Of a DNA stretch of 48,338 nt, positions 2,908 through 19,801 are shown piece by piece. Source of the stretch: Deltaproteobacteria bacterium (lineage in GTDB: Bacteria; Myxococcota; Kuafuiibacteriia; Kuafuiibacteriales; Kuafuiibacteriaceae); NCBI GenBank assembly GCA_040218735.1, contig JAVJQW010000005.1, positions 1 through 48,338 on the forward strand, read 5' to 3'. Position numbers and translations under genes: made by a program. The notes beneath the pieces are model-generated. The model saw nothing but the letters and a program-made list of their open reading frames with translations. It was not told where the DNA came from and did not search any database. Position 1 is the stretch's first letter; each line of letters begins with the position of its first letter.

Positions 2908-5316
2908 TTGAAAAAGACGCTGTGGGTGTGTGTTCTGGGGCTGGCGGCGTGCGCGCCCGACAAGATTGGGGCTCCGTCCCCCGACGAGCCCGGCGGGTCA
3001 TCGCCCCAAGGCCTCGCGGCGCCGATCGTGTCCAGCCCGTCCGACGGCGCGCGGATCGTCAGCCCGGCGTCGATCCGCGGTCGCGGCGCGCCCGGCGCGA
3101 TGGTCGTCGCCGTGCTCAGCGCCGATGACTTCGCGCTCGGCGAGGCCTTCGCGCGCGTCGACGCCGAGGGGGCGTTCTCCCTCTCGCTCACCTTCGATCC
3201 GGCCCCCGAGGGCGCCGCGGTGGTCCTCTCGGTGTCCCAGACCAACGGCTCCGAGACGTCGCCGCCCGCGCTCGTCACCGTGCAGGTCGACACGGCGCCA
3301 GCGGCGCCCATGATCCTCGCCCCGGCCGCGGACGCCGACGTCGCGAGCCCAGTCCGCGTCGAGGGTCGGGGACAGGCCGGCGCGACCGCCGTCGCGGTGG
3401 TGTCCGCGGGGGACGACGAGCTCGGCCGCGCGGAGGCGGTCGTCGACGCCCTGGGGTCGTTTCAGGTGAGCGTCGCCTACGCGGGCGCCGAGTCCGGTGA
3501 CGCGTTGATGCTCTCCGTTCACCTGAGGAGCGGCGCCGCGACGAGCCCGGTCGTGAAACGCGGCATCATGCACCGTCCGCGTCGACTCTCGGGGACCGTC
3601 GCGCAGCCGCTCGGTCCGTTCGACGGGACCCAGGTCTACGTCCGGCTCTACGAGTCCTCCGACGCCGTCGTCGATCCGCTGCTGGAGGTGCAGCTGACCG
3701 TCGCCGAGGATCGACCGCTCGAGGCGACCCCGTTCAGCTTCGACGTCGCCGACGGTCGCTACTTCATCCGCGCCTACCGCGACGCGCGCGGCCCGTGGGG
3801 CGGGCAGGCCGACGGGCACCCGACGATCCCGTACGACCCGCAGTCCACGATGAGCATCCCCGTGCAGGTCTCGGGCGACGACAACGACGGCGTCTCGCTC
3901 GTGCTCGCCGCGCCGGTCGTCGCGCAGGAACACTACGAGGGCTTCGACGTGCTCACGATGCACGAGTCCCATCACCCGCAGCCCCCAGGGGCCTACGACG
4001 AACAGCGCGAAGAGTGGGTCGAGGGGCCGGGACTCTGCCGCGGCTATTACCTCGCGATGCGCGTGCAGCGCAGGAGCGAAGTCGCGACGAGCGCGCCCCG
4101 CGTGCGTGCGCCCGACGGCACGATCGTCGAGCTCGCGGACGACGGCGGTTGCGGTGACGGCAACGACAACACCGCGTCGAGCTACGACGATCGACGCGGC
4201 GACGGGACGTACACGTTCGGCGTCCCGGAGCCGGCGGCGTCGCTCGCGGGTGCGTACACCTTCTTCTACCGCGACGAAGTCGAAGACCTGATCCACGAGT
4301 CCGTCGACATGGTCGCCTCGATTCGACAGCTCAGTCGCATGGTGATGCTCGAGGCCCCGACCGGCGCCGAGGCGGCGTCCACGATGCCGACCTACCGCTG
4401 GGCCGAGGTCCGCGGCGCCGTCGCGTACGCGCTGCGCGTCGACGGGGCGAACGGCGACAACTACGTCTCCGCGCTGACGACCAGCGCGATGTTCACCGCG
4501 AGCGCGCCGCTCCCGGACGATCGGGCCTACCGCGCCACGCTCGAGATCTACGACGCGAACCCGCTGGAGGGCGGCGACATCGACGCGAGCGCACGCTCGA
4601 TGACGAGCTTCTTCATCACCGACGAGGACGCCGACAGCACCGTCGTGATCTCCGGGACGATCGTGAACGAGACCGGTCGCACCGGCGCCGTCGGTATCTA
4701 CGTGGACGGCGACGAGTCTGTTGAGGCGAGCCTGCGCGTCCCCGCGGGGACCAGCAGCTACGCAATTCGCGCCTTCGCGCGCCCGAACGTCCGCGTGATG
4801 GCGTTCCTCGACGTGGAGGGCGCCGGCGAGCCCGAGCGCGCCGACGGTTACGTGATCGAGGTCGAGGTCGACGCGACCACCGACGCGACGGCGGACCTCG
4901 TGTTCCGCGCGCCGGTCGAGCTCACCAGCCCGGCCGACGGCGCCCGCGGCGTGGGCGCCACGCCGCGCCTCGAGTGGAACGGCTACGGCGACCACGCACC
5001 GGCCACGTGGTCCTACGCGGTCTACGTGTCGAACGGCGACGGCGACTTCCCGCAGGTCGTCTACGGGCTGCCGCCCAGCGCGACGTCGTTCGACTTCGCG
5101 ATGAGCGCGGCGTCGCAGGACGCGTTCGACATCGTGAACCTCGCGACCGGCTCCGCCAGCGCGTCGAACCTCAGCGGCGCGGAGGGGTGGGCGTGGGGTC
5201 TCGTGGTGATCGAGTGCGACCACGCAGCGAACGACTACGGCGCGTGTTTGATGGAGGTGCTCGGCGACGACGGCGCCTTCTACGCGCAGTCCCCCGAGTG
5301 GCGGTTCTCACCCTGA
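2908..5316 (+). CDS. large surface lipoprotein with repeated Ig/FN3-like beta domains and a choice-of-anchor-X-like DDG..GDG.Y motif
   Basis: Probable TTG start at 2908 with GGAGG at 2895-2899 (ORF opens at 2881); lipobox LAA-C; duplicated AP.I..P.DGA...SP..V.GRG..GA modules; LADDGG...DDRRGDGTYT. Confidence 0.75.
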   Translation: MKKTLWVCVLGLAACAPDKIGAPSPDEPGGSSPQGLAAPIVSSPSDGARIVSPASIRGRGAPGAMVVAVLSADDFALGEAFARVDAEGAFSLSLTFDPAPEGAAVVLSVSQTNGSETSPPALVTVQVDTAPAAPMILAPAADADVASPVRVEGRGQAGATAVAVVSAGDDELGRAEAVVDALGSFQVSVAYAGAESGDALMLSVHLRSGAATSPVVKRGIMHRPRRLSGTVAQPLGPFDGTQVYVRLYESSDAVVDPLLEVQLTVAEDRPLEATPFSFDVADGRYFIRAYRDARGPWGGQADGHPTIPYDPQSTMSIPVQVSGDDNDGVSLVLAAPVVAQEHYEGFDVLTMHESHHPQPPGAYDEQREEWVEGPGLCRGYYLAMRVQRRSEVATSAPRVRAPDGTIVELADDGGCGDGNDNTASSYDDRRGDGTYTFGVPEPAASLAGAYTFFYRDEVEDLIHESVDMVASIRQLSRMVMLEAPTGAEAASTMPTYRWAEVRGAVAYALRVDGANGDNYVSALTTSAMFTASAPLPDDRAYRATLEIYDANPLEGGDIDASARSMTSFFITDEDADSTVVISGTIVNETGRTGAVGIYVDGDESVEASLRVPAGTSSYAIRAFARPNVRVMAFLDVEGAGEPERADGYVIEVEVDATTDATADLVFRAPVELTSPADGARGVGATPRLEWNGYGDHAPATWSYAVYVSNGDGDFPQVVYGLPPSATSFDFAMSAASQDAFDIVNLATGSASASNLSGAEGWAWGLVVIECDHAANDYGACLMEVLGDDGAFYAQSPEWRFSP

Positions 5317-6954
5317 CGCTTTTTTGTCGCGGCGCATCTCGATGACGCGCTTTTCCATCCGCGCCTCCCGCAGGTGCGGGTGGAGCGCGAGCGCCTTGTC
5401 GTAGTTGGAGATCGCCTCGTTCAGGTCGCCTTTGTCGCGGTGCAGGCGGCCCAGATAGTAGTGCCACTGGCCGATCAGGATCGGGTCCTTCGGGCCGTCC
5501 TTCCGCGCCTTCTCGATCGCCGCTTCCAAGAGCTGCTTGCCCTTGCTGAGCGCGGTGGCGCGATCGAAGTGGCGATCCATGATCATCGACCACGCATAGA
5601 ACGCCGCGTACTGCGGGTTCGTCGCATCGAGGGTGTGCGCCCGTTCGAGGAGCTCGCGCGCTTCGGGCGCGGCGCCCTTGCGGAGGTGGACCTTCGCCAT
5701 CTCGAACGCCATCAGCGCGTCCTGCTCGTCCTTCTTCGCATCGCGCGCCGGCTTCGGCTCGGTCTGCTGCAAGTACGCCGCACGGGCCGCCGGGTGGTTG
5801 AGTGTTCGGTACGCCTCGTTGAGCGCGGCTTGGAGCTGATCGGCGATCGCGAGCACTTCGGGCGTCGCCGTCGCGCGCAGCGTGTCGGGGTGGAAGCGCC
5901 GCGCCCGGTCGAAGAACGCCTTCGAGATCGTCTCGGCGTCGGCGTTCTTCGCCACGCCCAGCAACGCGAAGTGGTCCGGCTTCTTCGGTAGCGCCGCGAA
6001 CGCGAGGAGCTCTTGCACGACCGCGTCCGTCGCCGGTGCGGGGTTCGCGGGGGGCGCGGTCGCCTGAGCTTCCTGGCCCTGCACCCACGCCTGGTACGCG
6101 GCACGAAGCTCCTCGTTGAACGGGTCGAGATCCTGCGCCGACAGCGCGAGCTTTCCGCACTGCTCCGGCGAGATGCGCGACAACTCCATCGCCTGCTGCA
6201 CGAGCGCCTTCGCGCGCTCGACCTTCTCCGGGAACGCCTGCGTCCACACCTCGCGCAGGTACGTGAAGTCTTCGCCGGCCGCGCGACGTTCGTCGATGCG
6301 CAGGTGGCTGTGGTGGAAGTCGTAGTGGAGTCGGCGCAGCGGGTTCGCGACGAGCTCACTCGCGCGTTCAAGCTGACGCACCACCTGCTCGAGGCGCGCG
6401 ACCTTCGGGGGCGGGCTGTCGGGCGGCGCGTCCGAGAACCGCTCGCACATCGTCTGCACGCGAAGCTCGATCGCGTCGCGCGTCGCGCCGGGCTCGACGT
6501 CGAGCGCCGCGTAGAGCTTCGAAGCGGAGAGCGCATCCATGATGCGCTTCGCGTCCGCGATCAGGACGTCGAGCGGCTCGTACTCCCGCTCGACCCCGAG
6601 GTCCGCGGAGAGCCGTGCCGCGACGCCGTCGACGTACTCTTCGATGCGCGTCTTGCTGTCGTCGTCGAGGCTGACGAACTGCACGCCGATCCCCGGCGGC
6701 TGGTTGAACGCGGCGGCGGACTCCGTCGAGACGACGTGCACGACCTCGGCGTCGAGCTCGAGCATCCCGTCCGGCGTCGACAGGTGGATGGTGAGCTGCG
6801 TCCCGAACGCCGGCGGCGTCTCGGTGCGGATGAACATCCCGCCCTTCGAGATGTCGACGGTCCACGCTTCCTTGAGTGCTTCGCGAGAGCCGAAGCCGAC
6901 CTCGACCTTTCGTTCGTCGATGAAGCGTGGGTGCTGGCGGACGGTGCTCGACAC
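5308..6954 (-). CDS. PilZ (TIGR02266-type) + degenerate J-like domain + J domain + TPR protein
   Basis: RQHPR and DISKGG PilZ motifs, GIGVQF; DHFALLGV...RFHPD J domain; C-terminal TPRs (HYYLGRLH..KGD..EAI..YDKAL.L.P). Confidence 0.85.
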   Translation of the reverse strand: MSSTVRQHPRFIDERKVEVGFGSREALKEAWTVDISKGGMFIRTETPPAFGTQLTIHLSTPDGMLELDAEVVHVVSTESAAAFNQPPGIGVQFVSLDDDSKTRIEEYVDGVAARLSADLGVEREYEPLDVLIADAKRIMDALSASKLYAALDVEPGATRDAIELRVQTMCERFSDAPPDSPPPKVARLEQVVRQLERASELVANPLRRLHYDFHHSHLRIDERRAAGEDFTYLREVWTQAFPEKVERAKALVQQAMELSRISPEQCGKLALSAQDLDPFNEELRAAYQAWVQGQEAQATAPPANPAPATDAVVQELLAFAALPKKPDHFALLGVAKNADAETISKAFFDRARRFHPDTLRATATPEVLAIADQLQAALNEAYRTLNHPAARAAYLQQTEPKPARDAKKDEQDALMAFEMAKVHLRKGAAPEARELLERAHTLDATNPQYAAFYAWSMIMDRHFDRATALSKGKQLLEAAIEKARKDGPKDPILIGQWHYYLGRLHRDKGDLNEAISNYDKALALHPHLREARMEKRVIEMRRDKKASG

Positions 6955-6998: not shown

Positions 6999-7514
6999 TC
7001 AGTCCTCGGTGGCAGAGGGTGGGATGCGCGCGCCGTCGGGGAGCGTCGCGTCCGGGTCGAGCACCGGGGCGGCGTCGAGGTCGTCGCCGTCCATCATCTC
7101 GACGATGCGTTCGAGGCTGCTCTTGATGCGATGCTGCTCATCCGGCTGGAGCCGCTGGAGCCGGTCCACGAAGCGCTCCTGGAGCGGCGAGGGCGCCTGT
7201 TCGATCAGCGCACGTCCTGCGTCGGTGAGCCGTACCGTGACCCGGCGGCGGTCCTTGCTCGTGCGTTCACGTGTCACGAGCTGCCTCGCGGCGAGGCGAT
7301 CGATGATGCCGGTCATCGTCGCCTGGCTGAGCGAGACCTCGCGGGCGATCTCACTCGGCGCCGCCTCCTCGAGCTGGCCAATCGTGCGCAGCGCGACGAG
7401 CTGCGGACCGGTGAGGCCGAAGGTGCTCGCCAGGTGTTTGCTGTGGAGATCGATCGCCCGGCTGATCCGCCGCAGCGACCGCAGGATGTCGTCCTCGATC
7501 GACGCCAACGTCAC
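6999..7514 (-). CDS. MarR-family repressor, EctR/CosR-like
   Basis: GTG start overlaps the symporter stop (GTGA); ILRSLRRISRAIDLHSKHL...GLTGPQL...SLSQATMTGIIDRL...DRRRV.V.LT..G......APSPLQERF is the EctR/CosR-type MarR pattern. Confidence 0.85.
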   Translation of the reverse strand: MTLASIEDDILRSLRRISRAIDLHSKHLASTFGLTGPQLVALRTIGQLEEAAPSEIAREVSLSQATMTGIIDRLAARQLVTRERTSKDRRRVTVRLTDAGRALIEQAPSPLQERFVDRLQRLQPDEQHRIKSSLERIVEMMDGDDLDAAPVLDPDATLPDGARIPPSATED

Positions 7515-9349
7515 GGAGTGTCGCACGACTCGACCCTGTCGGCACGCGGTCGTCGCGCGCCCCACGCGAGCGCGGCGGCACCGGCCGCGAGGAGCACGAC
7601 GGTGACGAGGTCCGTGGTGTCGAAGATGAGCCGCTTCAGGCCGAACAGCGCCGCGACCACGCCGCCCGTGACGCCGACCCACCGGAGCGCGACCTCGGAG
7701 AGCTGCGCGAATGCGGTCGCCGCCGTCCGGTCGGGCCAGAACCCGAGCGGACGAACGCGCGCGATGAACCGCGCGAGCGCCTCGTCGTTCTGCGCCGGAC
7801 GCACGACGAGCCCGATGACCAGGCCGACCAGGCTCGACGCGGAGATGATCACGAGGCGTAGCTCGTAGGTGACGTCGAGCGTCAGCGCCGCGACCGCCAA
7901 CCCGACGCCCATCGCGAGCAGCTCCGCGAGCGCGGTGACGCGCCACCACACCCAGCGCAGCGCGGTGGGGATCCCGAGCGCGGCGCCGAGCGCGGCGACC
8001 CACTTCCAGGCTTCTTCGATCGTGTCGATGTGCAGGCTCACCACCGCGGCGACGATCGCGAACACCAGCACCGCGGACCGCGCGACGAGCAGCTGCACGC
8101 GGGTCGACACGTCGGGGCGCGCGACGCACAGGACGTCGTTCACCACGTACGATGCGCCCCAGTTGATGTGGGTGTCGACGGTGCTCATGAACGCGGCGAG
8201 GAGGCTGGTGACCATCAGCCCGAGCGCGACCGGGGGGAGGAGCGCGACCATGAGCACGGGGTAGGCGAGCTCGCGGTCGTCGGCGACGGGTGCGGCGAGG
8301 CCGTCGAGCGCGGAGGTTTCGCCGCCGATCGGGACGAGCACGAGCGCCGAGACCGCGACGACGAACCACGGCACCGCGCGCACGAGGTAGTGGACGACGA
8401 CGAACAACACCGAGGCGCGGCGCGCGTCGTCCTCGCTGCGCGTGGCGTTGAGGCGCTGCATCATGTAGCCGCCGCCGTCCGCGGGGACGTTGGTGTACGA
8501 CTGCACGAACAGGTACGCGCCGAAGAGGAACGCGCCGAAACCGAGGCCGTCGACCCACGTGACATCCAAGCTCGGGATGAAGGTGATGAAGTCCTGCTCG
8601 GCGCCGTAGAGCTGGGTGAGCTTCTCGCTGATGCGCGCGCGCCCGCCGGCGCGCGTCCACGCGGCGACCGCGAGCCAGATGCTCCCGAACATCGCGACGC
8701 CGAGCTGGATGAGGTCCGTGAAGACCACACCGCGGATGCCGCCGACGCTGGAGTAGAAGCCGACGATCGCGAGGAGCGAGAGGATCGTCAAACCTTCCGA
8801 CGGTGTCCCGAGCGCGGCGCCGTCCGGCCACACCACAGCGAACGCGGCGACGAACGCCGGCGTCCAGACGTCCCAGTGAAAGAAGGGCGTCACGATCTTC
8901 ACCATCGCGCGCAGCACCCATCCGAGGATGATCGCGTTGTAGACCAGGCCGAACAGCACCGAGCGCGACGCGCGCAACACGCCGGCGGCGCGCCCCGAGT
9001 AGCGCAGTGCGACGAGCTCGGCGTCGGTGAGCACGCCGCTGCGACTCCAGCGCGCGGCGAAGTACACGACCACGGCGGCGTGCACGCCGATCCACGACAG
9101 CCACATCCAGTTCCCGGAGAGGCCGCGGCTCGCGACGATGCCGGTGACGGCGAGGGGGGTGTCGGCGGCGAAGGTGGTCGCGGCGATGGACAGGCCGGCC
9201 CACCACCAGGGGAGGGTGCGCCCCGCGAGGAAGTAGCTGGTGCGATCTTCGGACGCCGCCTTGCGGACGAAGAGCCCGACGCACGCGGCCATCACGAGGT
9301 AGACGCCGACGACGACCCAGTCGACGGTGTGGAGCGTCAGCCGGTCCAC
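7511..9349 (-). CDS. sodium:solute symporter (SSS family)
   Basis: YFLAGRTLPWW..GLSIAATTFAADTPLAVTG, GGIRGVVFTDLIQ, LLAAFMST; about 13-15 hydrophobic segments. Confidence 0.92.
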   Translation of the reverse strand: MDRLTLHTVDWVVVGVYLVMAACVGLFVRKAASEDRTSYFLAGRTLPWWWAGLSIAATTFAADTPLAVTGIVASRGLSGNWMWLSWIGVHAAVVVYFAARWSRSGVLTDAELVALRYSGRAAGVLRASRSVLFGLVYNAIILGWVLRAMVKIVTPFFHWDVWTPAFVAAFAVVWPDGAALGTPSEGLTILSLLAIVGFYSSVGGIRGVVFTDLIQLGVAMFGSIWLAVAAWTRAGGRARISEKLTQLYGAEQDFITFIPSLDVTWVDGLGFGAFLFGAYLFVQSYTNVPADGGGYMMQRLNATRSEDDARRASVLFVVVHYLVRAVPWFVVAVSALVLVPIGGETSALDGLAAPVADDRELAYPVLMVALLPPVALGLMVTSLLAAFMSTVDTHINWGASYVVNDVLCVARPDVSTRVQLLVARSAVLVFAIVAAVVSLHIDTIEEAWKWVAALGAALGIPTALRWVWWRVTALAELLAMGVGLAVAALTLDVTYELRLVIISASSLVGLVIGLVVRPAQNDEALARFIARVRPLGFWPDRTAATAFAQLSEVALRWVGVTGGVVAALFGLKRLIFDTTDLVTVVLLAAGAAALAWGARRPRADRVESCDTP

Positions 9350-9361
9350 TTCAGGTCCACG

Positions 9362-10399
9362 TCAGGTGTACGTCACCTTGTTGAGCCCGGCGGGTTGGTC
9401 CGGGTTGATGCCGCGCCGGCCCGCGAGCTCGAGCGCGACGAGCTGCGACAGGAACGCGAGCACCACGGAGCGCGCCCAGCGCACGGTGGGCATCGGGATC
9501 GCGAGCGCGCGCTGCGCCAACGCTTCGGCGCGGTCGCCGCGGTGGGAGGCTTCGCCGGTCACGGTGAGGTGGGGCGCGCCGCGCGCGAGGAGGCGGGTGG
9601 AGACGGCGTCGAGGCTATCAGCGGGTTCGTCGCCGTCCTGGAAGAGGACGACGCGGTCCGTGCTGTCGAGCGCGCCGATCGGACCGTGGAGGATCTCCGC
9701 GGCCGACCACGCCTGGCACTTGAGCCCGATCGACTCCTGCAGCTTCAACGCTGCGTCCTGCGCCGCGGCGAGCGCGGGGCCGCGCGCGACCCACACCACG
9801 GCTTTGCCGCCTTCGATGAAGTCGGCGAGGCGGACCACCGCGTCGCTCTCGAGGATCAGCTCCATGGCCACCGCTGTCTCGTCCGCGGCGGGCTGCAGCT
9901 TGAGGTCGCAGAGCGCCGCGGTGACGAACAGCTGCGCGCCGAAGCTCTTCGTGGCGGGCACCGCGAGCTCGTCGCCGACCCCCACGTCGACCATCGCGTC
10001 GCAGACCCGGCCGAGGTTGCTGTCGGGCGTCGCGCCGTTCGTGACGGCGAGGATGCGTGCGCCGCGCTCCTTCAACCACTGCGCGGAGTGGGCGATGTCC
10101 GTGCTCTGACCCGACGCGGAGTAGGCGAACACCCGCGCGTCCTCCCATCGGGCGTCGGCGGAGCGTTGGGTCGACAGCCACGGCCGGAACTCGATCGGGT
10201 GGCGGCCGCTGTTCACGCCCGCAAGGTAGGTTGCGAACGTGCACGCGTTTCCGGAGCTGCCGCGTCCGACGAGCACGAGGTTGTCGCGTGCTCCGACCCG
10301 CTGAAGGGCTTCATGGGCGTCACGCGTCCAGGTGTCGGCTTTGGAGCGGAGCAAGTACGGTTGTTCGACGGTCTCGTCGCGCATGTGGCAGGCGATCAT
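9362..10399 (-). CDS. double-SIS-domain protein, glucosamine-6-phosphate deaminase (NagB-II/GlmS isomerase-like)
   Basis: ATG at 10399 overlaps the upstream stop; GRGSS, SASGQSTD, E.AVPATKSF, ARG...AALKLQE, SAAEILHGP, NPDQP.GLNKVT; no glutaminase domain. Confidence 0.85.
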   Translation of the reverse strand: MIACHMRDETVEQPYLLRSKADTWTRDAHEALQRVGARDNLVLVGRGSSGNACTFATYLAGVNSGRHPIEFRPWLSTQRSADARWEDARVFAYSASGQSTDIAHSAQWLKERGARILAVTNGATPDSNLGRVCDAMVDVGVGDELAVPATKSFGAQLFVTAALCDLKLQPAADETAVAMELILESDAVVRLADFIEGGKAVVWVARGPALAAAQDAALKLQESIGLKCQAWSAAEILHGPIGALDSTDRVVLFQDGDEPADSLDAVSTRLLARGAPHLTVTGEASHRGDRAEALAQRALAIPMPTVRWARSVVLAFLSQLVALELAGRRGINPDQPAGLNKVTYT

Positions 10400-11229
10400 C
10401 GGGGGCCTCCTCTTTCGGGCGGGGTGACGTGAGGGCGCGCGCGCCAGTAGAACTCGGCCGGCGAGCCCTTCCACGTGACGTTGGCGAGCTGAGGTTCGAG
10501 GGAGCGGTCCGGGCCGAAGAACAGCGACAGCTGGGTCGCGTAGTGTTTGACGAGTCGGACTTTGGTCGCGACGTCGGTGTGGACCGCGAGGCGCGCGGAC
10601 GGCCGGCACCCGATGCGTTCGAGCGCGCGGGTGGGATCGTCGGGCTCGCCGCCGCCGAACTCGTGGTCGAAGACGTACGGGACGTCCTCGTAGAAGAGCA
10701 GGTTGTTGGGGCTCGCGACCTGCAAGGCGACTTGCGCGCAGATGGCGTGGTCGACGTGCAGCCCGATGCCCATCGGCGCCAGCACGAGCACTCGACCCAT
10801 GTTCTGGACGAGGCGGCGGAGGACGAGGAACAGCTCCTCGACGTACGCGCTGTCGTCGGGCGCACAGAGCGCGAACTTCGTGCGTGAGCGTCGGTAGATC
10901 AGGTCGCCGGTGGTCGGGCTGCGTCGGTAGATGCAGTCCGCGAAGCCGAGGTGCACGAAGTCGCAGTCGAGGTCGTGCATCGCGCGGATGTCCTCGCGGC
11001 GGCGCGCGAGGGGCGATGCGAACCCGCGACGGTGGCGACCGCTCCCGTTGTTGTTGCGCGGCACTGGGTTGCCGCACGCGATGGTGACGACGAGGCGCGA
11101 GACCTTGCCCTTCAACGCGGTGAGGAGCCCGGCGGTGGACAGGACAGCGTCGTCGAGGTGCGGCGAAAGCGCGATGACGCGCTCGAACTTGTCCCAGTCG
11201 TACGCGGCGAGGAGGTCGATCGTCTTCAT
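10396..11229 (-). CDS. PIG-L/LmbE-family Zn-dependent de-N-acetylase
   Basis: SPHLDDAVLS, RRRED, HVDH and YEDVPY motifs. Confidence 0.9.
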   Translation of the reverse strand: MKTIDLLAAYDWDKFERVIALSPHLDDAVLSTAGLLTALKGKVSRLVVTIACGNPVPRNNNGSGRHRRGFASPLARRREDIRAMHDLDCDFVHLGFADCIYRRSPTTGDLIYRRSRTKFALCAPDDSAYVEELFLVLRRLVQNMGRVLVLAPMGIGLHVDHAICAQVALQVASPNNLLFYEDVPYVFDHEFGGGEPDDPTRALERIGCRPSARLAVHTDVATKVRLVKHYATQLSLFFGPDRSLEPQLANVTWKGSPAEFYWRARPHVTPPERGGPR

Positions 11230-12500
11230 GCGAACATCGGGATCTGGGCGCCGTAGCGGCGCTTCGCGAGCTCCATCATCGTGCGCGCCTTCGCGGTCGA
11301 CTCGACGAGCGGGTTGTCGGCGAGCGCGGCCGTGGCGGCCTCGACGTCGTGACCAACGGCGGCCTCCGCGGCGCGTCGTTGGTAACGTTCGAGGCGGAGC
11401 AAGAGCGGCATCTGATCGGGCGCGACGGGCGGCGCCGACGTGCGCAAGATCTCTTGCTTCGAGACCGAGCAGACCGATTCGACGACCGTCGTCGGATCGA
11501 AGATCGGCGCTGCGCCCTGACCGGCGACGTTGAGCACCATCCGCTGCGGGGTGTCGGATCCGAGCGCGCGCAGCATCAGCACCGCCATGTCGCCGAAGCC
11601 GCTGCTGCCGCGGTGGTGTGTCAGGACAGGGACGTCGCGGCGGGCCTCCTCCTCGAAGTGGGCGAAATACGTCGGCAGCTTCGCGAGGATGGCTTCGGCG
11701 CGCGAGCCGGCCTTCAGCGCGTGGGCGACGAACACGTCCGGCCGCGCGTAGAACGCGAGGTACGAGTTCGGGAAGTAGCCGGGATGCGATCGCGCGAGCT
11801 CGAGCGAGATCTCGAATCGCAGCCGGTACGCGCCGTCGAGGTGCGCGGGGACCTCGATCGTGTCGATCGCGGGGAGCGGCGCGCCATCGATTCGGACGTC
11901 GTGGTACCAGGTCGCGTGGTTGAGGCCGACGCAGTCGAAGCGTGCTTCGCCGTCGCGTCCGAGCGCGAGCGCGAGGTCGTGCATGTCTTCGTCGGACTGG
12001 TCGCAGAGGCCGATGACCCGCACGCCGCGACCGAGGAGCGCCTGCGTCACGATGTTCGTCGGGTTGGTGTAGTTCAGGAGCACCGCCTCGGGGGCGAGGC
12101 GTTTCAGGCGGTCGACGATCGCGATCGACGCCGGGACGGACCGCAGCGCGAAGAAGAACCCACCGGGGCCGACGGTCTCCTGGCCGGGGATTTCGACCTC
12201 CAACGGGATCGTCTCGTCGTGGTGCCGACAGGTGAGTCCACCCGGACGTGACGTGTTGAGGACGGCGTCGGTCCCTGTGAGCGCTTCGTCGAGATCGTCG
12301 TAGGCGCGCACCGTGAACGGCGCGCCCTGCGTGTTCGCCATCTTCGCGCCGAGGCGCGACACGACGTCGAGGTTCTTGGCGTCGATGTCGAAGAGGCGCA
12401 CCTCACGTAGCTCGAGCTCGCGGCAGTGGTGGAGGAGCGCGGCGAGCAGCCCGGGCGTGTACGCGCTGCCGCCGCCGACGACGGTGAAGGTTCGAATCAT
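11226..12500 (-). CDS. glycoside hydrolase family 4 (6-phospho-beta-glucosidase/ChbF-like)
   Basis: ATG at 12500; VGGGSAYTP, GQETVGPGG, NYTNP, GLCD, GLNH and NPLV are the GH4 NAD+/Mn2+ motifs. Confidence 0.92.
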   Translation of the reverse strand: MIRTFTVVGGGSAYTPGLLAALLHHCRELELREVRLFDIDAKNLDVVSRLGAKMANTQGAPFTVRAYDDLDEALTGTDAVLNTSRPGGLTCRHHDETIPLEVEIPGQETVGPGGFFFALRSVPASIAIVDRLKRLAPEAVLLNYTNPTNIVTQALLGRGVRVIGLCDQSDEDMHDLALALGRDGEARFDCVGLNHATWYHDVRIDGAPLPAIDTIEVPAHLDGAYRLRFEISLELARSHPGYFPNSYLAFYARPDVFVAHALKAGSRAEAILAKLPTYFAHFEEEARRDVPVLTHHRGSSGFGDMAVLMLRALGSDTPQRMVLNVAGQGAAPIFDPTTVVESVCSVSKQEILRTSAPPVAPDQMPLLLRLERYQRRAAEAAVGHDVEAATAALADNPLVESTAKARTMMELAKRRYGAQIPMFA

Positions 12501-13360
12501 GACTGCTCCAACAGATCGGCGAAGACGTCGGCGCGACGCGCGACGCCACCGGTGACCATGAGTTGACGCGCCGCAACCTCGGTTGCGAGGCGGCCCGCGG
12601 CTTCGCCGCTGCGTCCGGCGAGCCGACCCGCGACGAACCCCGCCGCGAACGCGTCGCCCGCGCCGGTGTGGTCCGCGACCGCGACCTCGTGCGCGGGCAC
12701 CGCGAAGCGAACGTCGTCCACGCGGCCCACCGCGCCGCGGTCGTCGAGGGTGACGATCAGGTCGCGGACGTTCGTGAGACCGGAGAGCGCGCCGTCGACC
12801 GAGCCGGCCGCAGTGCGCGCTTCGGCTTCGTTGAGGAACAACAGGTCCCACGGCGGCGAGTCCGCCGCGAGGGACGCGAGGCGGTTGGGGGCCCAGCTCC
12901 CGCTCACGCTGACCGTGGCGCCCGCGGCGCGCGCCCGGGCGAGCAGCGGCTCGAGCGCGCGTGCTTCTTCCAGCCCGGGCACGTGGATGTGCTGCGCGTC
13001 GGGGAGGGCGGGGCACTCGGCGAGGCTCGCGAAGTGCGCCGCGGTGACGAACGCGCGGTCTTCGGGGAACGCGAGGACGAGCGAGATCGCCGGGTCGTCC
13101 GGCGCTCGCCAGGTGTGCGCGTCGAGGTCGAGCGCTTCGGTCGCGCGCTGGATTGCGTGGTCGGCGATGCCCATGCCGGCGGGGTAGGCGAGGGTGACGT
13201 CCTGCCCGAGCGCGCGCAGGACGGACGCGGTGTTGATCGCTCCGCCGAAGCCGAGCGTCATCGAACGCACGAAGCGCTCGCGGCCGGGCTCGACCGCGAA
13301 GTCATCGCCGCCGACGTTCACCTCGAAGAACACGAGGCCGGCGACCACGATTCGGCTCAC
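12497..13360 (-). CDS. PfkB/ribokinase-family carbohydrate kinase
   Basis: GTG start overlaps the ggpS stop; FGGAINTA, LFLNEAEA and DHTGAGDAFAAGF signatures. Confidence 0.9.
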   Translation of the reverse strand: MSRIVVAGLVFFEVNVGGDDFAVEPGRERFVRSMTLGFGGAINTASVLRALGQDVTLAYPAGMGIADHAIQRATEALDLDAHTWRAPDDPAISLVLAFPEDRAFVTAAHFASLAECPALPDAQHIHVPGLEEARALEPLLARARAAGATVSVSGSWAPNRLASLAADSPPWDLLFLNEAEARTAAGSVDGALSGLTNVRDLIVTLDDRGAVGRVDDVRFAVPAHEVAVADHTGAGDAFAAGFVAGRLAGRSGEAAGRLATEVAARQLMVTGGVARRADVFADLLEQS

Positions 13361-15618
13361 GCGTTGGCTCCTTCGAGCCCTTCCAGGAAGCCGTCGCCCC
13401 AGCGGCGCACGTCGTTGTACTCGACGATCTGCTGCATCCGTCGCTGGCGCTGCCCGCGTTCGTCGTCGGACATGGTGAGTGCGTGCATCAGCGCGTTCTT
13501 CATGCTGCTGAGGTCGAACGGGTTCGCGAGGAGCGCGCCGTGCATCTCGACCGCGGCACCGGCGAACTCGGAGAGCACGAGCGCGCCCTTTGTGTTCGTC
13601 GCGGCCTTGGCCATCACGTACTCCTTGGCGACGAGGTTCAGCCCGTCGCGCAGCGGCGTGATCCACGCGACGTCACTCGCCGCGTAGTGCGCGACGACGT
13701 CCTCGAACGGGAGCGACCGCAGGAAGTAACGCACCGGCGTCCAGTCCATGCGGCCGAAGCGGCCGTTGAGCTGACCGACGGCCTGATCGAGTTTGTCGTT
13801 GAGGGTCTTGTAGATCCGCATCCCGGACGCGGGGGGCGTGACGAAGTTGATCAGCACGACCTTGCCGTGGAGCTCGGGGTGCTCCTCGAGGAGCTGGCCG
13901 AACGCTTCGATCTTCTCGAGCGGGCCTTTGACGTAGTCGAGCCGCTCGATCGAGACGATCGCCGTCCGGCCCTCCAGCTCGCCGCGTATCTGCTCGATGC
14001 GCTGCGCGACGTCGTCGCGGGCGACGAGCTCGCGGATGCGTTGGCAGTCGATGCCGACCGGGTGCGCGCCGAGGTGGACCCGGCGTCCGCCGACGTCGAT
14101 CGCCGTGGCCATCTGATCGATGCCGAGCGCGCAGCCGTAGGTGACGAAGCGCGGCGCACACGGCACGCGGTCGACGACCTGCGTCGGAGCGTTCGACTGG
14201 AGGACGTCGACGAAGTTTTCGAGGTAGCGCGGGATGTGGAAGCCGACGTAGTCACACTGCGCGAGGCTGCCGACGATGTGCTCGCGCCACGGGAGCATGT
14301 TGAACACGTCCGACGGCGGGAACGACGTGTGGTGGAAGAAGCCGATCTTCACGTCGGCGCGGAGCTGCCGGAGCATCCCCGGCACCAGCCACAGGTTGTA
14401 GTCGTGGACCCAGACGAGGGCGTTGGGTTTGGCTTCTTCGGCGGTCCGCTCGGCGAAGGCGCGGTTGACGTCGACGAAGGTCTCCCACATCGACGCGTCG
14501 AACACGGCGCGGCCCGGGAACGAGAAGATCACCGGCCAGAACGCCTCCTTCGAGAAACGTTTGTAGAAGCGGTCGACGTCGTCCTTGGTGAGGGCGATGC
14601 GCGCCGCTTCGAGGCCGGCGTACTCGTCCGCGACGGGCACGGTGCGTTCGAAGTCGTCCGGGTCGCGGGAGTCCTGGAGTGACCAGCCGACCCACGCGCC
14701 CGCGCGGCCGTTCGCGAAGAAGCCGAGGAGCGACGGGATGATTCCGTTGGGGCTCTTCGGCCGGCGGCGGAACGTCTTGCCGTTGCGTCGGTACTCCTCG
14801 AACGGGAGGCGGTGGTAGACCATCACCAGCTGGCTCTGGGCGCCTTCGAGATCGAGCGTCGGCGTGCGCGGCTGCGGGTCGACCCAGCCGTGTTTCGTCA
14901 GCGCCTCTTCGATGCCCGCCGCGCCGACGCCATCGGCGACGTGGACGGTGTCGCGCCGCGCGACGTGATCGACGAGCGCGGGCTCCGCGTTGTGAACGAC
15001 GACGCCGAGCAGCCCGGTGTCGAACATCGAGCGGTCGTTGAGCGTGTCGCCGGCGACGAGGACGCGCTTCGGATCCAGGCCGAGGTGATCGACGAGCGCG
15101 AGGAGCGTCGGTCCCTTCGACACCCCCTTCGGCATCACGTCGAGGTAGCGGCCGGCCGAGAGGATCAGGTCACAGCCGAGCGCCTCGACGGTGGCGTTCA
15201 GCTCGGGGGTCACTGCGGCGTCGGACGTATAGAGATAGGAGCACCGGCGCTCCTGCGGGACGTCCTGTCGGACGAGCCCTTCGAAGCGCGCGAGGCGATC
15301 GATCACCTCGAGTGTGCCGGGCCACCGCGCTTCGATGTTCGCCTGGAGCGGCTGGACAGGGACGAAGCGTTCGTCCACGACCTCCACGATCGTCGCGCCG
15401 ACGTCGGCGATGACGTACTTCGGCTTCGGGACGAGCGGATCCCAGAACAGCGGACGGACGGTTTCGAGGCCGCGACCCGTAACGAAGATGGTGAGCGCCC
15501 CGTCGAGGGTGTCGAGCAGGCTCTGGCGTTCTTCGTCCGACCCTCCGAGGAGGGTGCCGTCGAGATCGGTGGCGAGGACGAAGGGGGGCGCGGGGGTCAG
15601 GGCAGCGGGGACGCTCAC
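13357..15618 (-). CDS. ggpS: glucosylglycerol-phosphate synthase fused to an N-terminal HAD phosphatase (GgpPS-type)
   Basis: HAD motifs LATDLDGT, KG, GDTLND; GT20 motifs WVHDYNLWLVP, ERLDYVKG, LRDGLNLVAKEY, LSEFAGAA; GgpS-typical YHRLP...PKSPNGIIPSLLGFF. Confidence 0.9.
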   Translation of the reverse strand: MSVPAALTPAPPFVLATDLDGTLLGGSDEERQSLLDTLDGALTIFVTGRGLETVRPLFWDPLVPKPKYVIADVGATIVEVVDERFVPVQPLQANIEARWPGTLEVIDRLARFEGLVRQDVPQERRCSYLYTSDAAVTPELNATVEALGCDLILSAGRYLDVMPKGVSKGPTLLALVDHLGLDPKRVLVAGDTLNDRSMFDTGLLGVVVHNAEPALVDHVARRDTVHVADGVGAAGIEEALTKHGWVDPQPRTPTLDLEGAQSQLVMVYHRLPFEEYRRNGKTFRRRPKSPNGIIPSLLGFFANGRAGAWVGWSLQDSRDPDDFERTVPVADEYAGLEAARIALTKDDVDRFYKRFSKEAFWPVIFSFPGRAVFDASMWETFVDVNRAFAERTAEEAKPNALVWVHDYNLWLVPGMLRQLRADVKIGFFHHTSFPPSDVFNMLPWREHIVGSLAQCDYVGFHIPRYLENFVDVLQSNAPTQVVDRVPCAPRFVTYGCALGIDQMATAIDVGGRRVHLGAHPVGIDCQRIRELVARDDVAQRIEQIRGELEGRTAIVSIERLDYVKGPLEKIEAFGQLLEEHPELHGKVVLINFVTPPASGMRIYKTLNDKLDQAVGQLNGRFGRMDWTPVRYFLRSLPFEDVVAHYAASDVAWITPLRDGLNLVAKEYVMAKAATNTKGALVLSEFAGAAVEMHGALLANPFDLSSMKNALMHALTMSDDERGQRQRRMQQIVEYNDVRRWGDGFLEGLEGANA

Positions 15619-15869
15619 AGCGGGCGGGCCGTGATGCGCCAGAAGGACGCGCCTTCGTCGAAGCCGACCCGGTTGATGAACCGGACATACCCGGCGTCCT
15701 CCAGGCGCTTCAGCCAGTTGGCGGCGCGGTCGGCGTTCGGGACGAGCCGGGCGATCGCCTGCTCCAGGCGTTGCTTACCGGCGATGTAACCCGACGAATT
15801 CGTTGGTCCTTCCTTGTCGATGAGTGCCTCGGCGAGGTGGTCGAGCCGTGGCGGAGCCTTGAAAGTCAT
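15615..15869 (-). CDS. small hypothetical protein (84 aa), possibly winged-helix-like; first gene of the ggpS operon
   Basis: ATG start; stop overlaps the ggpS GTG; ends WLKRLEDAGYVRF...FWRI (helix followed by beta hairpin). Confidence 0.65.
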   Translation of the reverse strand: MTFKAPPRLDHLAEALIDKEGPTNSSGYIAGKQRLEQAIARLVPNADRAANWLKRLEDAGYVRFINRVGFDEGASFWRITARPL

Positions 15870-15925
15870 AGGCTCGTTTATAACTCATATGTTTTGAGGA
15901 CTAAAGGTTTGAGTAGAATAAATGA
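15870..15925 (-). promoter_or_regulatory. AT-rich promoter/operator region of the ggpS operon with a TTTGA-GG-ACTAA pseudo-palindrome and a second TTTGA-GT-AGAAT box
   Basis: Sharp AT-rich island in GC-rich DNA; boxes at 15893-15904 and 15908-15919; resembles EctR/CosR-type operators as I recall them. Confidence 0.6.
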
Positions 15926-16850
15926 CGCGATGCGATAGGGGGCGTGAGGCGCGCCAGCGTGCGAGCTGTTCGACGAACCGGTCCACGAACGCGAGATCCC
16001 AGCCCTCGATCTGATCGGCCGCGTGCGGGGTGACGAGGACTTGGTCGAGGGACCACAGGGGTGAGCTCGGCGGGAGCGGCTCGGACGCGAAGACGTCGAG
16101 CCACGCGCCGCGGAGGTGGCCGTCCACGAGGCGTTCGACGAGCGCGGCTTCGTCGACGAGGCCGCCGCGCGCGGTGTTCACGAAGGGGGCGCCGGGGCGG
16201 AGGCGCGCGAGGCGGTCGCGATCGAAGAGGCGGTGCGTCGAGGCGTCGAGCCGCAGGTGCAGCGACACGATGTCGGCGTGCGGGAGTTGGTCGTCGAGCG
16301 CTTCGGGGCCGAACACCTTCGGTGCACCGCCACGTTCGGGGTGACGGCGGATCGCTTCGACCTCCATCCCGAGCGCGGACGCGAGCGACGCGACTCGGCC
16401 GCCGACCTCCCCGAGGCCGACGAGCAGGAGTCGCTGGCCGCGGACGGTTCGGAAGCGTCGTCGCGACCAGGTGCGCTGGGCCTTGGCTTCGAAGAGTCCG
16501 CCGTCGAGCGCGAGCACCGCGCCCACCCAGGTCTCGGCGAGGTAGGGCGCGAGGACGCCGGCGGAGTTGGTGACGTGGATTCGGTCGTCGTCCCACGCGC
16601 CGAGGTGCTCGACGCCGGAGCCACCGACGTGGATCCAACGCACGGCTTCGTGTCGGACGAGCGTGTGGAACTCGGGGCCGATGAAGCGCGACGACTTGAT
16701 CGCGAAGACGACCTCGGGGCGGTGGGTGTCGAGCGCGGGCTCGATTGCGTCGAGTCGATCGACGGCGACGAAGTCCACGTCTTCGACGCGCGCGCGCAAC
16801 GCTTCGACGAGGCGCGCGGCGTCGGCGTGGACGACGACGACCGGCGTCAC
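15885..16850 (-). CDS. D-2-hydroxyacid dehydrogenase family protein
   Basis: VGLGEVG Rossmann motif, FVNTARG, LDVF..EPLP, VTPH.A. Confidence 0.9.
   Translation of the reverse strand: MTPVVVVHADAARLVEALRARVEDVDFVAVDRLDAIEPALDTHRPEVVFAIKSSRFIGPEFHTLVRHEAVRWIHVGGSGVEHLGAWDDDRIHVTNSAGVLAPYLAETWVGAVLALDGGLFEAKAQRTWSRRRFRTVRGQRLLLVGLGEVGGRVASLASALGMEVEAIRRHPERGGAPKVFGPEALDDQLPHADIVSLHLRLDASTHRLFDRDRLARLRPGAPFVNTARGGLVDEAALVERLVDGHLRGAWLDVFASEPLPPSSPLWSLDQVLVTPHAADQIEGWDLAFVDRFVEQLARWRASRPLSHRVIYSTQTFSPQNI

Positions 16851-17854: not shown

Positions 17855-19801
<1,947 letters not shown>

Follow-up and report, generated by a model that had tools for sequence, protein, structure and literature searches.

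Why would an operon that appears to make the compatible solute glucosylglycerol (GG) also encode enzymes that look suited to amino sugars? The question is raised by a minus-strand gene cluster at positions 15869-6999 of a 48,338-nucleotide stretch of contig JAVJQW010000005.1 from a deltaproteobacterium (~70% G+C); this whole stretch is referred to below as the window. The cluster encodes GgpPS, a fusion of a HAD-IIB phosphatase and a GT20 glycosyltransferase, together with a PfkB-family sugar kinase, a GH4 glycosidase, a PIG-L deacetylase and a double-SIS protein, and the last four are called the module here. The families are known; the novelty lies in their being conserved together with GgpPS and in the question that this poses. 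We tentatively favor the possibility that the locus holds a horizontally mobile osmoadaptation cassette, in which GG synthesis and uptake are joined to a turnover line for glycosyl-glycerols. The genes are listed below from the candidate control region onward; every stated domain scores above its Pfam gathering threshold, and orf84 is without any Pfam family.

15870 to 15935, minus strand: A+T-rich candidate promoter/operator upstream of orf84, read from the sequence, with a presumed role
15615 to 15869, minus strand: orf84, small protein, possibly winged-helix-like; no Pfam or NCBIfam match, a rare family
13357 to 15618, minus strand: GgpPS, HAD-IIB phosphatase and GT20 fusion (PF05116, 151 bits; PF00982, 433 bits; TIGR02398)
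12497 to 13360, minus strand: PfkB-family sugar kinase (PF00294, 76.9 bits)
11226 to 12500, minus strand: GH4 NAD+/metal-dependent glycosidase (PF02056, 137.1 bits; PF11975, 81.7 bits)
10396 to 11229, minus strand: PIG-L/LmbE-family (CE14) deacetylase (PF02585, 40.7 bits against a gathering score of 28.2)
9362 to 10399, minus strand: double-SIS protein of the GlmS-isomerase/NagB-II type (PF01380 in two stretches)
7511 to 9349, minus strand: sodium:solute symporter (SSS), nearest to sugar-type members (PF00474, 95.9 bits)
6999 to 7514, minus strand: MarR-family regulator (PF01047, 54 bits)

Six junctions between the eight genes are 4-bp start/stop overlaps (GTGA or ATGA), and the only junction that does not overlap, between the SIS and SSS genes, measures 12 bp (9350-9361). 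The start codons are provisional, having been chosen to give these overlaps; orthologues in the genomes of four relatives begin 0-6 residues away from these positions, with the overlaps kept. G+C content at third codon positions is 0.84-0.95 across all eight genes, as elsewhere in the window. An initial annotation, made from the sequence alone, had given this gene order, these domains, the six overlaps and the 12-bp gap, all of which the junction sequences and Pfam matches bear out, and the overlaps likewise uphold its description of the cluster as one coupled unit.

Is the combination peculiar to this genome? One sample of relatives comprised 41 genomes, namely that of the window (G000), 19 from the same family and 21 from elsewhere in the phylum. 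The PIG-L protein was present in five of them (G000 and 4 of the 19 from its own family, with none in the 21 from other families). The four relatives all carry ggpPS, pfkB, GH4, PIG-L and SIS together; three of the four also carry SSS, and MarR is present only in the locus from the same genus. In a separate scan, one genome per species was searched with the PIG-L alignment and 80 loci were kept, 25 of them at 44-59% identity and 55 at 35% or less. The order pfkB-GH4-PIG-L is present in all 25 closer loci where the contig permits, accompanied by SIS in 23, by SSS in 4 and by ggpPS at 50% coverage or more in 18; in one further locus (L018), the HAD part of ggpPS lies at the contig end. The 55 distant PIG-L relatives, mostly from Chloroflexota, were rejected as carriers, with the gene set in 0/55. 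Neighbor clustering revealed no shared context among them, the commonest neighbor other than PIG-L itself occurring in 11/55.

One of the 25 closer loci lies on the same contig as a relative's locus, which leaves 28 distinct loci other than that of the window. Among these, ggpPS is adjacent to the module in 22 and elsewhere in the genome in two (G041 and G044); it was not found in the genomes of two others, small metagenome bins of 2.4-2.6 Mb, and the contigs of the remaining two are too short to decide. The core set is ggpPS plus pfkB-GH4-PIG-L; SIS is usually part of it, and SSS sometimes, in 6/28 (L007, L009, L010/L012, L011, L019 and L034). According to record titles, carriers span Polyangiales, Myxococcales, Kofleriaceae, Rhodoferax, Comamonadaceae, Janthinobacterium sp. 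CG3, an Oxalobacteraceae isolate, Holophagaceae and Thermoanaerobaculia, and a protein search added Geopsychrobacter electrodiphilus and Sulfuriferula. The PIG-L orthologues bear only generic public names. At least five gene orders were seen, including ggpPS-module, ggpPS-SSS-module and module-ggpPS, along with divergent layouts in which either ggpPS-SSS or ggpPS by itself (L035) points away from the module. Whenever the gene order changes, PIG-L stays with GH4 and not with ggpPS. The MarR gene is kept in a single same-genus locus (L007) and orf84 in none of the module loci able to show it, L007 ending inside ggpPS; both genes and the two upstream genes fall outside the conserved set. The eight-gene operon of the initial annotation thus stands as a coupled unit in the window, but the unit that is conserved has four to six genes. 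The neighborhood search that the annotation had proposed finds its link of ggpS to the kinase, GH4, PIG-L and SIS genes kept across phyla, so the gene set is indeed conserved with ggpPS in other genomes.

The SIS gene is missing from the clusters of three Oxalobacteraceae-type loci (L032, L033 and L123), and a paralogue of 28-31% identity is found elsewhere in those genomes; judged by gene content, SIS is replaceable. One of these loci, L032 (Oxalobacteraceae GrIS, G049:C6:126138-126953), also has an in-frame TGA in its PIG-L match and a GH4 match that ends at query residue 375, and the module there may be decaying.

Does the module follow GgpPS beyond simple adjacency? GgpPS and the PIG-L orthologue occur in the same 5/41 relatives, and the module is present in 0/36 GgpPS-negative genomes. 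In the family of Janthinobacterium sp. CG3 (201 genomes), GgpPS was found in 11 genomes and the PIG-L orthologue in five, all five among the 11, with the module in 0/190 GgpPS-negative genomes. In a GgpPS tree of 35 rows, six module-free proteins nest within the module-bearing clade, and one of them is the sister of a module-linked protein with full support. This nesting suggests that the module was gained and lost without change of the GgpPS lineage, and in the two samples it was never seen without GgpPS. A tree of GH4 plus PIG-L (27 rows) shares its main clades with the GgpPS tree, with some disagreement for unlinked cases, and the acidobacterial row is nested among betaproteobacteria in both.

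These trees bear on the possibility that the module is functionally unrelated to GgpPS and simply rides on the same mobile stress island. Both show transfer of the whole block across phyla, the flanks vary by locus, and co-occurrence is largely the same fact as adjacency, as such hitch-hiking would predict. The link has nevertheless outlasted at least five rearrangements and two cases in which ggpPS lies elsewhere in the genome, and several lineages show translational coupling of the genes. We therefore regard hitch-hiking as very unlikely.

What does the synthase make? The fusion consists of a sucrose-phosphatase-like HAD-IIB domain (PF05116, residues 12-242), with a DLDGT motif near the N-terminus, and a GT20 domain (residues 263-749; PF00982 match over 263-748). 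It scores 657.2 bits against the GgpS equivalog TIGR02398 (cut-off 569; 659.1 bits in the whole-genome search) and is the only protein of the genome above this cut-off. When the GT20 domain was aligned to OtsA of Mycobacterium thermoresistibile (5jij, E 8.7e-92), the donor contacts named in the available part of PMC6879718 were found to be kept (Arg286, Lys291, Asp385, backbone 386-389, Glu393, His168 and Gly39), with one Met-to-Leu change. The arginine that contacts the acceptor phosphate in OtsA is replaced, as expected with a different acceptor. A class-level sample yielded one further fusion (49% identical, beside an MFS transporter gene) and four stand-alone GT20s. The motifs SPNG, HDYNLW, FFHHT, GFHIPR and PLRDGLNLV are identical in module carriers, non-carriers, the MFS-linked fusion and the stand-alone proteins, which are 42-45% identical. 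The position at which Phe favors pyrimidine donors is occupied by Leu and an acidic residue is kept, both of which are suggestive only. GlgC is above its cut-off in the genome, so ADP-glucose is available. GgpPS therefore looks, by sequence, like a canonical glucosylglycerol-phosphate synthase/phosphatase, with no sign of a changed donor sugar in its GT20 score, donor contacts or motifs. A reading of the GT20 as a validamycin-like pseudo-glycosyltransferase was rejected on account of the GgpS equivalog score and the Trk/MscS context described below.

The donor question is central to one of the two models offered in the initial annotation, in which the product is an amino-sugar osmolyte. There, the GT20 would place N-acetylglucosamine (GlcNAc) on glycerol-3-phosphate as a main or side activity, the HAD domain would remove the phosphate and PIG-L would deacetylate the product to glucosaminyl-glycerol, which the kinase, GH4 and SIS would recycle to fructose-6-phosphate and glycerol. 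Such a route would resemble mycothiol synthesis, which runs from a retaining glycosyltransferase through a phosphatase to a PIG-L deacetylase; pairs of a glycosyltransferase and PIG-L are also part of the bacillithiol, glycosylphosphatidylinositol and aminoglycoside pathways. The model gives every gene a role, explains why the module strictly depends on GgpPS and fits the glycerol kinase hint discussed below. It is disfavored by the equivalog score and the kept glucose-donor contacts of OtsA, by motifs that are the same in carriers and non-carriers and so offer no carrier-specific signature, and by the sister relation of a module-free and a module-linked GgpPS. The Leu at the Phe position, suggestive only, and the constant pairing of PIG-L with GH4 upon reordering also count against it, and we know of no GT20 with a GlcNAc donor. 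We consider this model improbable.

The likeness to mycothiol and bacillithiol synthesis (MshA/MshA2/MshB and BshA/BshB) is that each brings together a glycosyltransferase acting on an alcohol phosphate, a phosphatase and a PIG-L deacetylase. In contrast to the window's cluster, with its glucose-type donor contacts in a GT20, the glycosyltransferases of those pathways are GT4 enzymes that use UDP-GlcNAc, and no cysteine ligase is encoded here.

What could the module enzymes act on? The PfkB protein reaches no NCBIfam equivalog. Its best matches are to ribose-1-phosphate kinases, at 45-53 bits and far under the cut-offs, whose substrate is a C1-substituted sugar, and its matches in the PDB are weak, the best being 2-keto-3-deoxygluconate (KDG) kinase (E 3.5e-11). 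A reading of PfkB and SIS as a fructosamine kinase/deglycase pair (FrlD/FrlB) was rejected, as FrlD reached only 30 bits and no FrlB model was listed. The nearest structures to GH4 are the 6-phospho-beta-glucosidases 5c3m (E 4e-50) and 1s6y (2e-48) and GlvA (1u8x), and all of its full-length PDB matches are 6-phospho enzymes; it is 28% identical over its full length to ChbF of E. coli, with GGGS, NYTNP, LCD and GLNH motifs in common. The structures closest to PIG-L are those of the GlcNAc deacetylases Dbv21 and Orf2*, and its H24-x-D26-D27 and H158-x-D160-H161 residues, which we take to be zinc ligands, are invariant in five orthologues. The SIS protein falls short of the cut-offs of both NagB-II (NF046059, 114.5 bits against 430) and GlmS (TIGR01135, 91.5 bits against 418), matching the latter only at profile positions 252-602 and thus without the N-terminal glutaminase domain. 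Its nearest structures are 7kqa, 3fj1 and the NagB-II structure 8eol, and a lysine near its C-terminus presumably fits the GlmS pattern. No NagA or classical NagB was found above family cut-offs in the 96.5%-complete genome G000. Taken together, the module resembles ChbG/ChbF plus NagB-II, with deacetylation, phosphorylation, GH4 cleavage and deamination, and it reads as a putative line from a 2-acetamido or 2-amino glucoside to fructose-6-phosphate.

In the second model of the initial annotation, the module supplies the synthase from an unrelated source. It would break down a GlcNAc glycoside such as chitobiose or a peptidoglycan-recycling disaccharide, and the resulting fructose-6-phosphate would be converted to nucleoside diphosphate (NDP)-glucose, with ammonia and acetate as by-products, as a supply for GG synthesis during stress. 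Under this model each of the four enzymes acts in its canonical role, with a GH4 like ChbF (PMC9402603, in its available part) and a SIS protein like NagB-II, and co-expression with the synthase entails no futile cycle. With neither NagA nor classical NagB above cut-off, the module could also be the sole GlcNAc-deacetylating route of the genome. The archaeal chitobiose deacetylase, moreover, is of the PIG-L type.

The genes around the module weaken this supply model. The flanking genes that were scanned with Pfam include no chitinase, GlcNAc or chitobiose transporter or NagZ-type enzyme, and clusters of the Rhodoferax type hold no transporter. A general GlcNAc route would be expected in genomes without GgpPS as well, but the module is missing from all GgpPS-negative genomes of both samples, and hexose phosphate, as a central metabolite, can come from many places. 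We keep the supply model as the foremost rival, though an unlikely one.

The context points instead to osmoadaptation. At one module-free locus the gene order is TrkH-TrkA-GgpPS-MscS. In six betaproteobacterial loci and L123, MscS comes immediately after the module (behind SIS, or behind PIG-L in L033 and L123), which places the module between ggpPS and mscS at these loci. Genes for a ProV-like ABC ATPase and for a Na+/H+ antiporter, both named by eye, also lie nearby. The flanks differ between loci. A sponge-metagenome contig of 16,531 bases spans the whole cluster with 120 differences in 8927 bases, and fragments about equally similar are present in aquaculture and biofloc metagenomes. This context is consistent with an osmoadaptive island of a saline setting. 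A Holophagaceae bin (L023) offers a possible link to glycerol: a gene for glycerol kinase (TIGR01311, 667 bits against 590; L023:1047-2525) immediately precedes pfkB-GH4-PIG-L-SIS and is read in the same direction. GgpPS was not found in this 2.6-Mb bin. The kinase could equally feed glycerol-3-phosphate to a synthase, as the supply model would have it.

Other genes were noted near the module at individual loci. Four Rhodoferax-type loci (L013:3135-3587, L014, L017 and L026) encode a small secreted-looking protein between ggpPS and pfkB, which begins like a signal peptide and, by eye, has two SH3-type repeats. A Thermoanaerobaculia locus has a gene for a GNAT acetyltransferase ~0.6 kb ahead of ggpPS (L034:7-627), the only such case among the scanned flanks. 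GT2 glycosyltransferase genes, one of them chitin-synthase-like, lie a few kb from the module at L020:16389-17810 and L029:318-1604, where ggpPS is not adjacent.

The remaining genes of the operon concern uptake and control. All seven PDB matches of the SSS protein are Na+/glucose or galactose cotransporters (vSGLT, SGLT1 and SGLT2). The MarR protein is below every NCBIfam cut-off (best named match Saro_0803, 61 bits against 200) and is nearest to OhrR structures; the EctR/CosR-like label given to it in the initial annotation reflects its membership of the MarR family only. For orf84, six matches at E<=0.001 were found among 1.84 billion representatives, five of them 84-89 residues long and 35-92% identical. 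Its AlphaFold2 model (pLDDT 82.6) shows three helices and a beta hairpin; a Foldseek search gave nothing at E<=0.001, and a weak list of mostly winged-helix DNA binders suggests that orf84 is possibly winged-helix-like. An A+T-rich stretch of ~60 bp (15870-15935) directly precedes orf84, overlaps the last codons of an upstream 2-hydroxyacid dehydrogenase open reading frame and is likely the control region of the operon. In this stretch a consensus scan detected no sigma-70-type site, and there was no inverted repeat upstream of the operon. The orf84 ATG is preceded at a distance of 7 bases by a TATAAA, such that the transcript might be leaderless. Four terminator-like sites were detected, all inside genes, where 3.7 are expected by chance. 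The genes that flank the operon in the window encode an FHA-GAF-sigma54 activator, a PilZ-DnaJ-TPR protein and a Ser/Thr kinase (147-2018, 5308-6954 and 17855-19801), a set common in myxobacterial genomes, and synteny of the PilZ-DnaJ gene extends to L007, from the same genus.

How might these parts work together? From the observed gene structure, families, conservation and co-occurrence with GgpPS, we infer the substrates, order of steps and direction of flux that follow. The GT20 would join NDP-glucose, probably ADP-glucose, to glycerol-3-phosphate, and the fused HAD domain would then dephosphorylate the product to GG, while the SGLT-like SSS protein would import or re-import a glycoside. 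The pfkB-GH4-PIG-L(-SIS) set would form a cytoplasmic breakdown line dependent on GgpPS. The PfkB kinase would first phosphorylate the glycoside at a primary hydroxyl; PIG-L would next strip an N-acetyl group where one is present; GH4, by NAD+/metal-dependent redox elimination, would release a hexose-6-phosphate (glucose-6-phosphate or glucosamine-6-phosphate) and an aglycone, proposed to be glycerol; and SIS would finally turn glucosamine-6-phosphate into fructose-6-phosphate and ammonia. The GH4 chemistry may tolerate either OH or NH2 at C2, with PIG-L and SIS extending the line to acetamido analogues. The amino-sugar enzymes would then be present either because the line really acts on a 2-acetamido analogue of GG or for a wider salvage of glucosides and glucosaminides. 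The dependence on GgpPS, the place of the module between ggpPS and mscS and the single glycerol kinase case all point to a glycosyl-glycerol substrate.

Several observations weigh against this turnover proposal. GG carries no N-acetyl or amino group, so two of the four module enzymes are unexplained if GG is the substrate, and a synthase that resembles glucose enzymes is plainly at odds with PIG-L and SIS, which resemble amino-sugar enzymes. Translational coupling of synthesis and breakdown genes would create a futile cycle unless the activities are controlled post-translationally. A MelA-type alpha-galactosidase model also matches GH4 over its full length, at 137.7 bits, which makes 6-phosphate specificity tentative, and glpK adjacency was seen in only 1/34 of the sequences searched. 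The co-occurrence counts mostly restate physical linkage and, as the genomes are related, overstate independence. The GgpPS tree holds no biochemically characterized GgpS, and the best 120 matches listed in the GgpPS protein search, at ~60% identity, are all uncharacterized. No RNA data set appeared among the listed holders of the sequence.

Known systems offer partial precedents for the favored turnover line. The GgpPS proteins of Azotobacter vinelandii, Pseudomonas, Stenotrophomonas and Marinobacter are the same phosphatase and GT20 fusion as that found here. In Marinobacter, according to the available part of PMC10873239, ggpPS is always adjacent to a GG phosphorylase gene, a precedent for synthesis beside breakdown, and in the window, too, the synthase gene sits beside genes that plausibly consume its product. 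Unlike in Marinobacter, its partner is the kinase/GH4/PIG-L/SIS set and not a GH13_18 phosphorylase. The sucrose-phosphorylase-family model TIGR03852 gave no match above its cut-off in five module-free GgpPS genomes, a result that is uninformative as to complementary distribution. In E. coli, deacetylation by ChbG makes the substrate of the GH4 enzyme ChbF, which cleaves a 6-phosphorylated glucosaminide (PMC9402603, in its available sections). The module is like this pair in that a deacetylase may prepare the substrate of a GH4, but differs from the chb system in that the deacetylase is PIG-L/CE14 and not YdjC, a PfkB kinase takes the place of the phosphotransferase system proteins ChbBCA, and neither ChbR nor a chitobiose transporter is encoded in the operon.

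The chitin pathway of Thermococcus, with a PIG-L-type Dac, a glucosamine kinase and a SIS-type GlmD, follows the same deacetylase-kinase-deaminase logic. The Thermococcus GlmD model NF041128 matches the SIS protein weakly (26.6 bits). That pathway differs in having a GH35 glycosidase and an ADP-dependent kinase, and neither family match reaches its cut-off here. Catabolic arms for glycosyl compatible solutes are represented by cyanobacterial GghA and by MngA/MngB of E. coli, the latter of which phosphorylate and then cleave. Their enzyme families are unrelated to those of the module, and GghA needs no ATP. The turnover arm proposed here would nonetheless act in the role of GghA or of the Marinobacter GG phosphorylase.

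A search of the literature, confined to main texts, yielded no account of ggpS with a GH4, PIG-L or NagB gene set, in line with the annotation's remark that no described ggpS operon was known to carry a deacetylase and a deaminase-like gene; a passage on GH4 in PMC13096917 was not relevant. The same search of main texts did not find glucosaminyl- or N-acetylglucosaminyl-glycerol as a solute. The cassette is compact, with four to six genes, and is present in cultured strains (Janthinobacterium sp. CG3 and Geopsychrobacter electrodiphilus), which makes the question directly testable. GG has commercial uses, and a controllable turnover line would be relevant to production strains. The routes of GG breakdown named in the available part of PMC10873239 are the GghA hydrolase and GG phosphorylase; a kinase and GH4 route, if true, would be a third. 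If the substrate is instead an amino sugar, one would have to reconsider either which products GgpS-type enzymes form or which compounds serve bacteria as compatible solutes.

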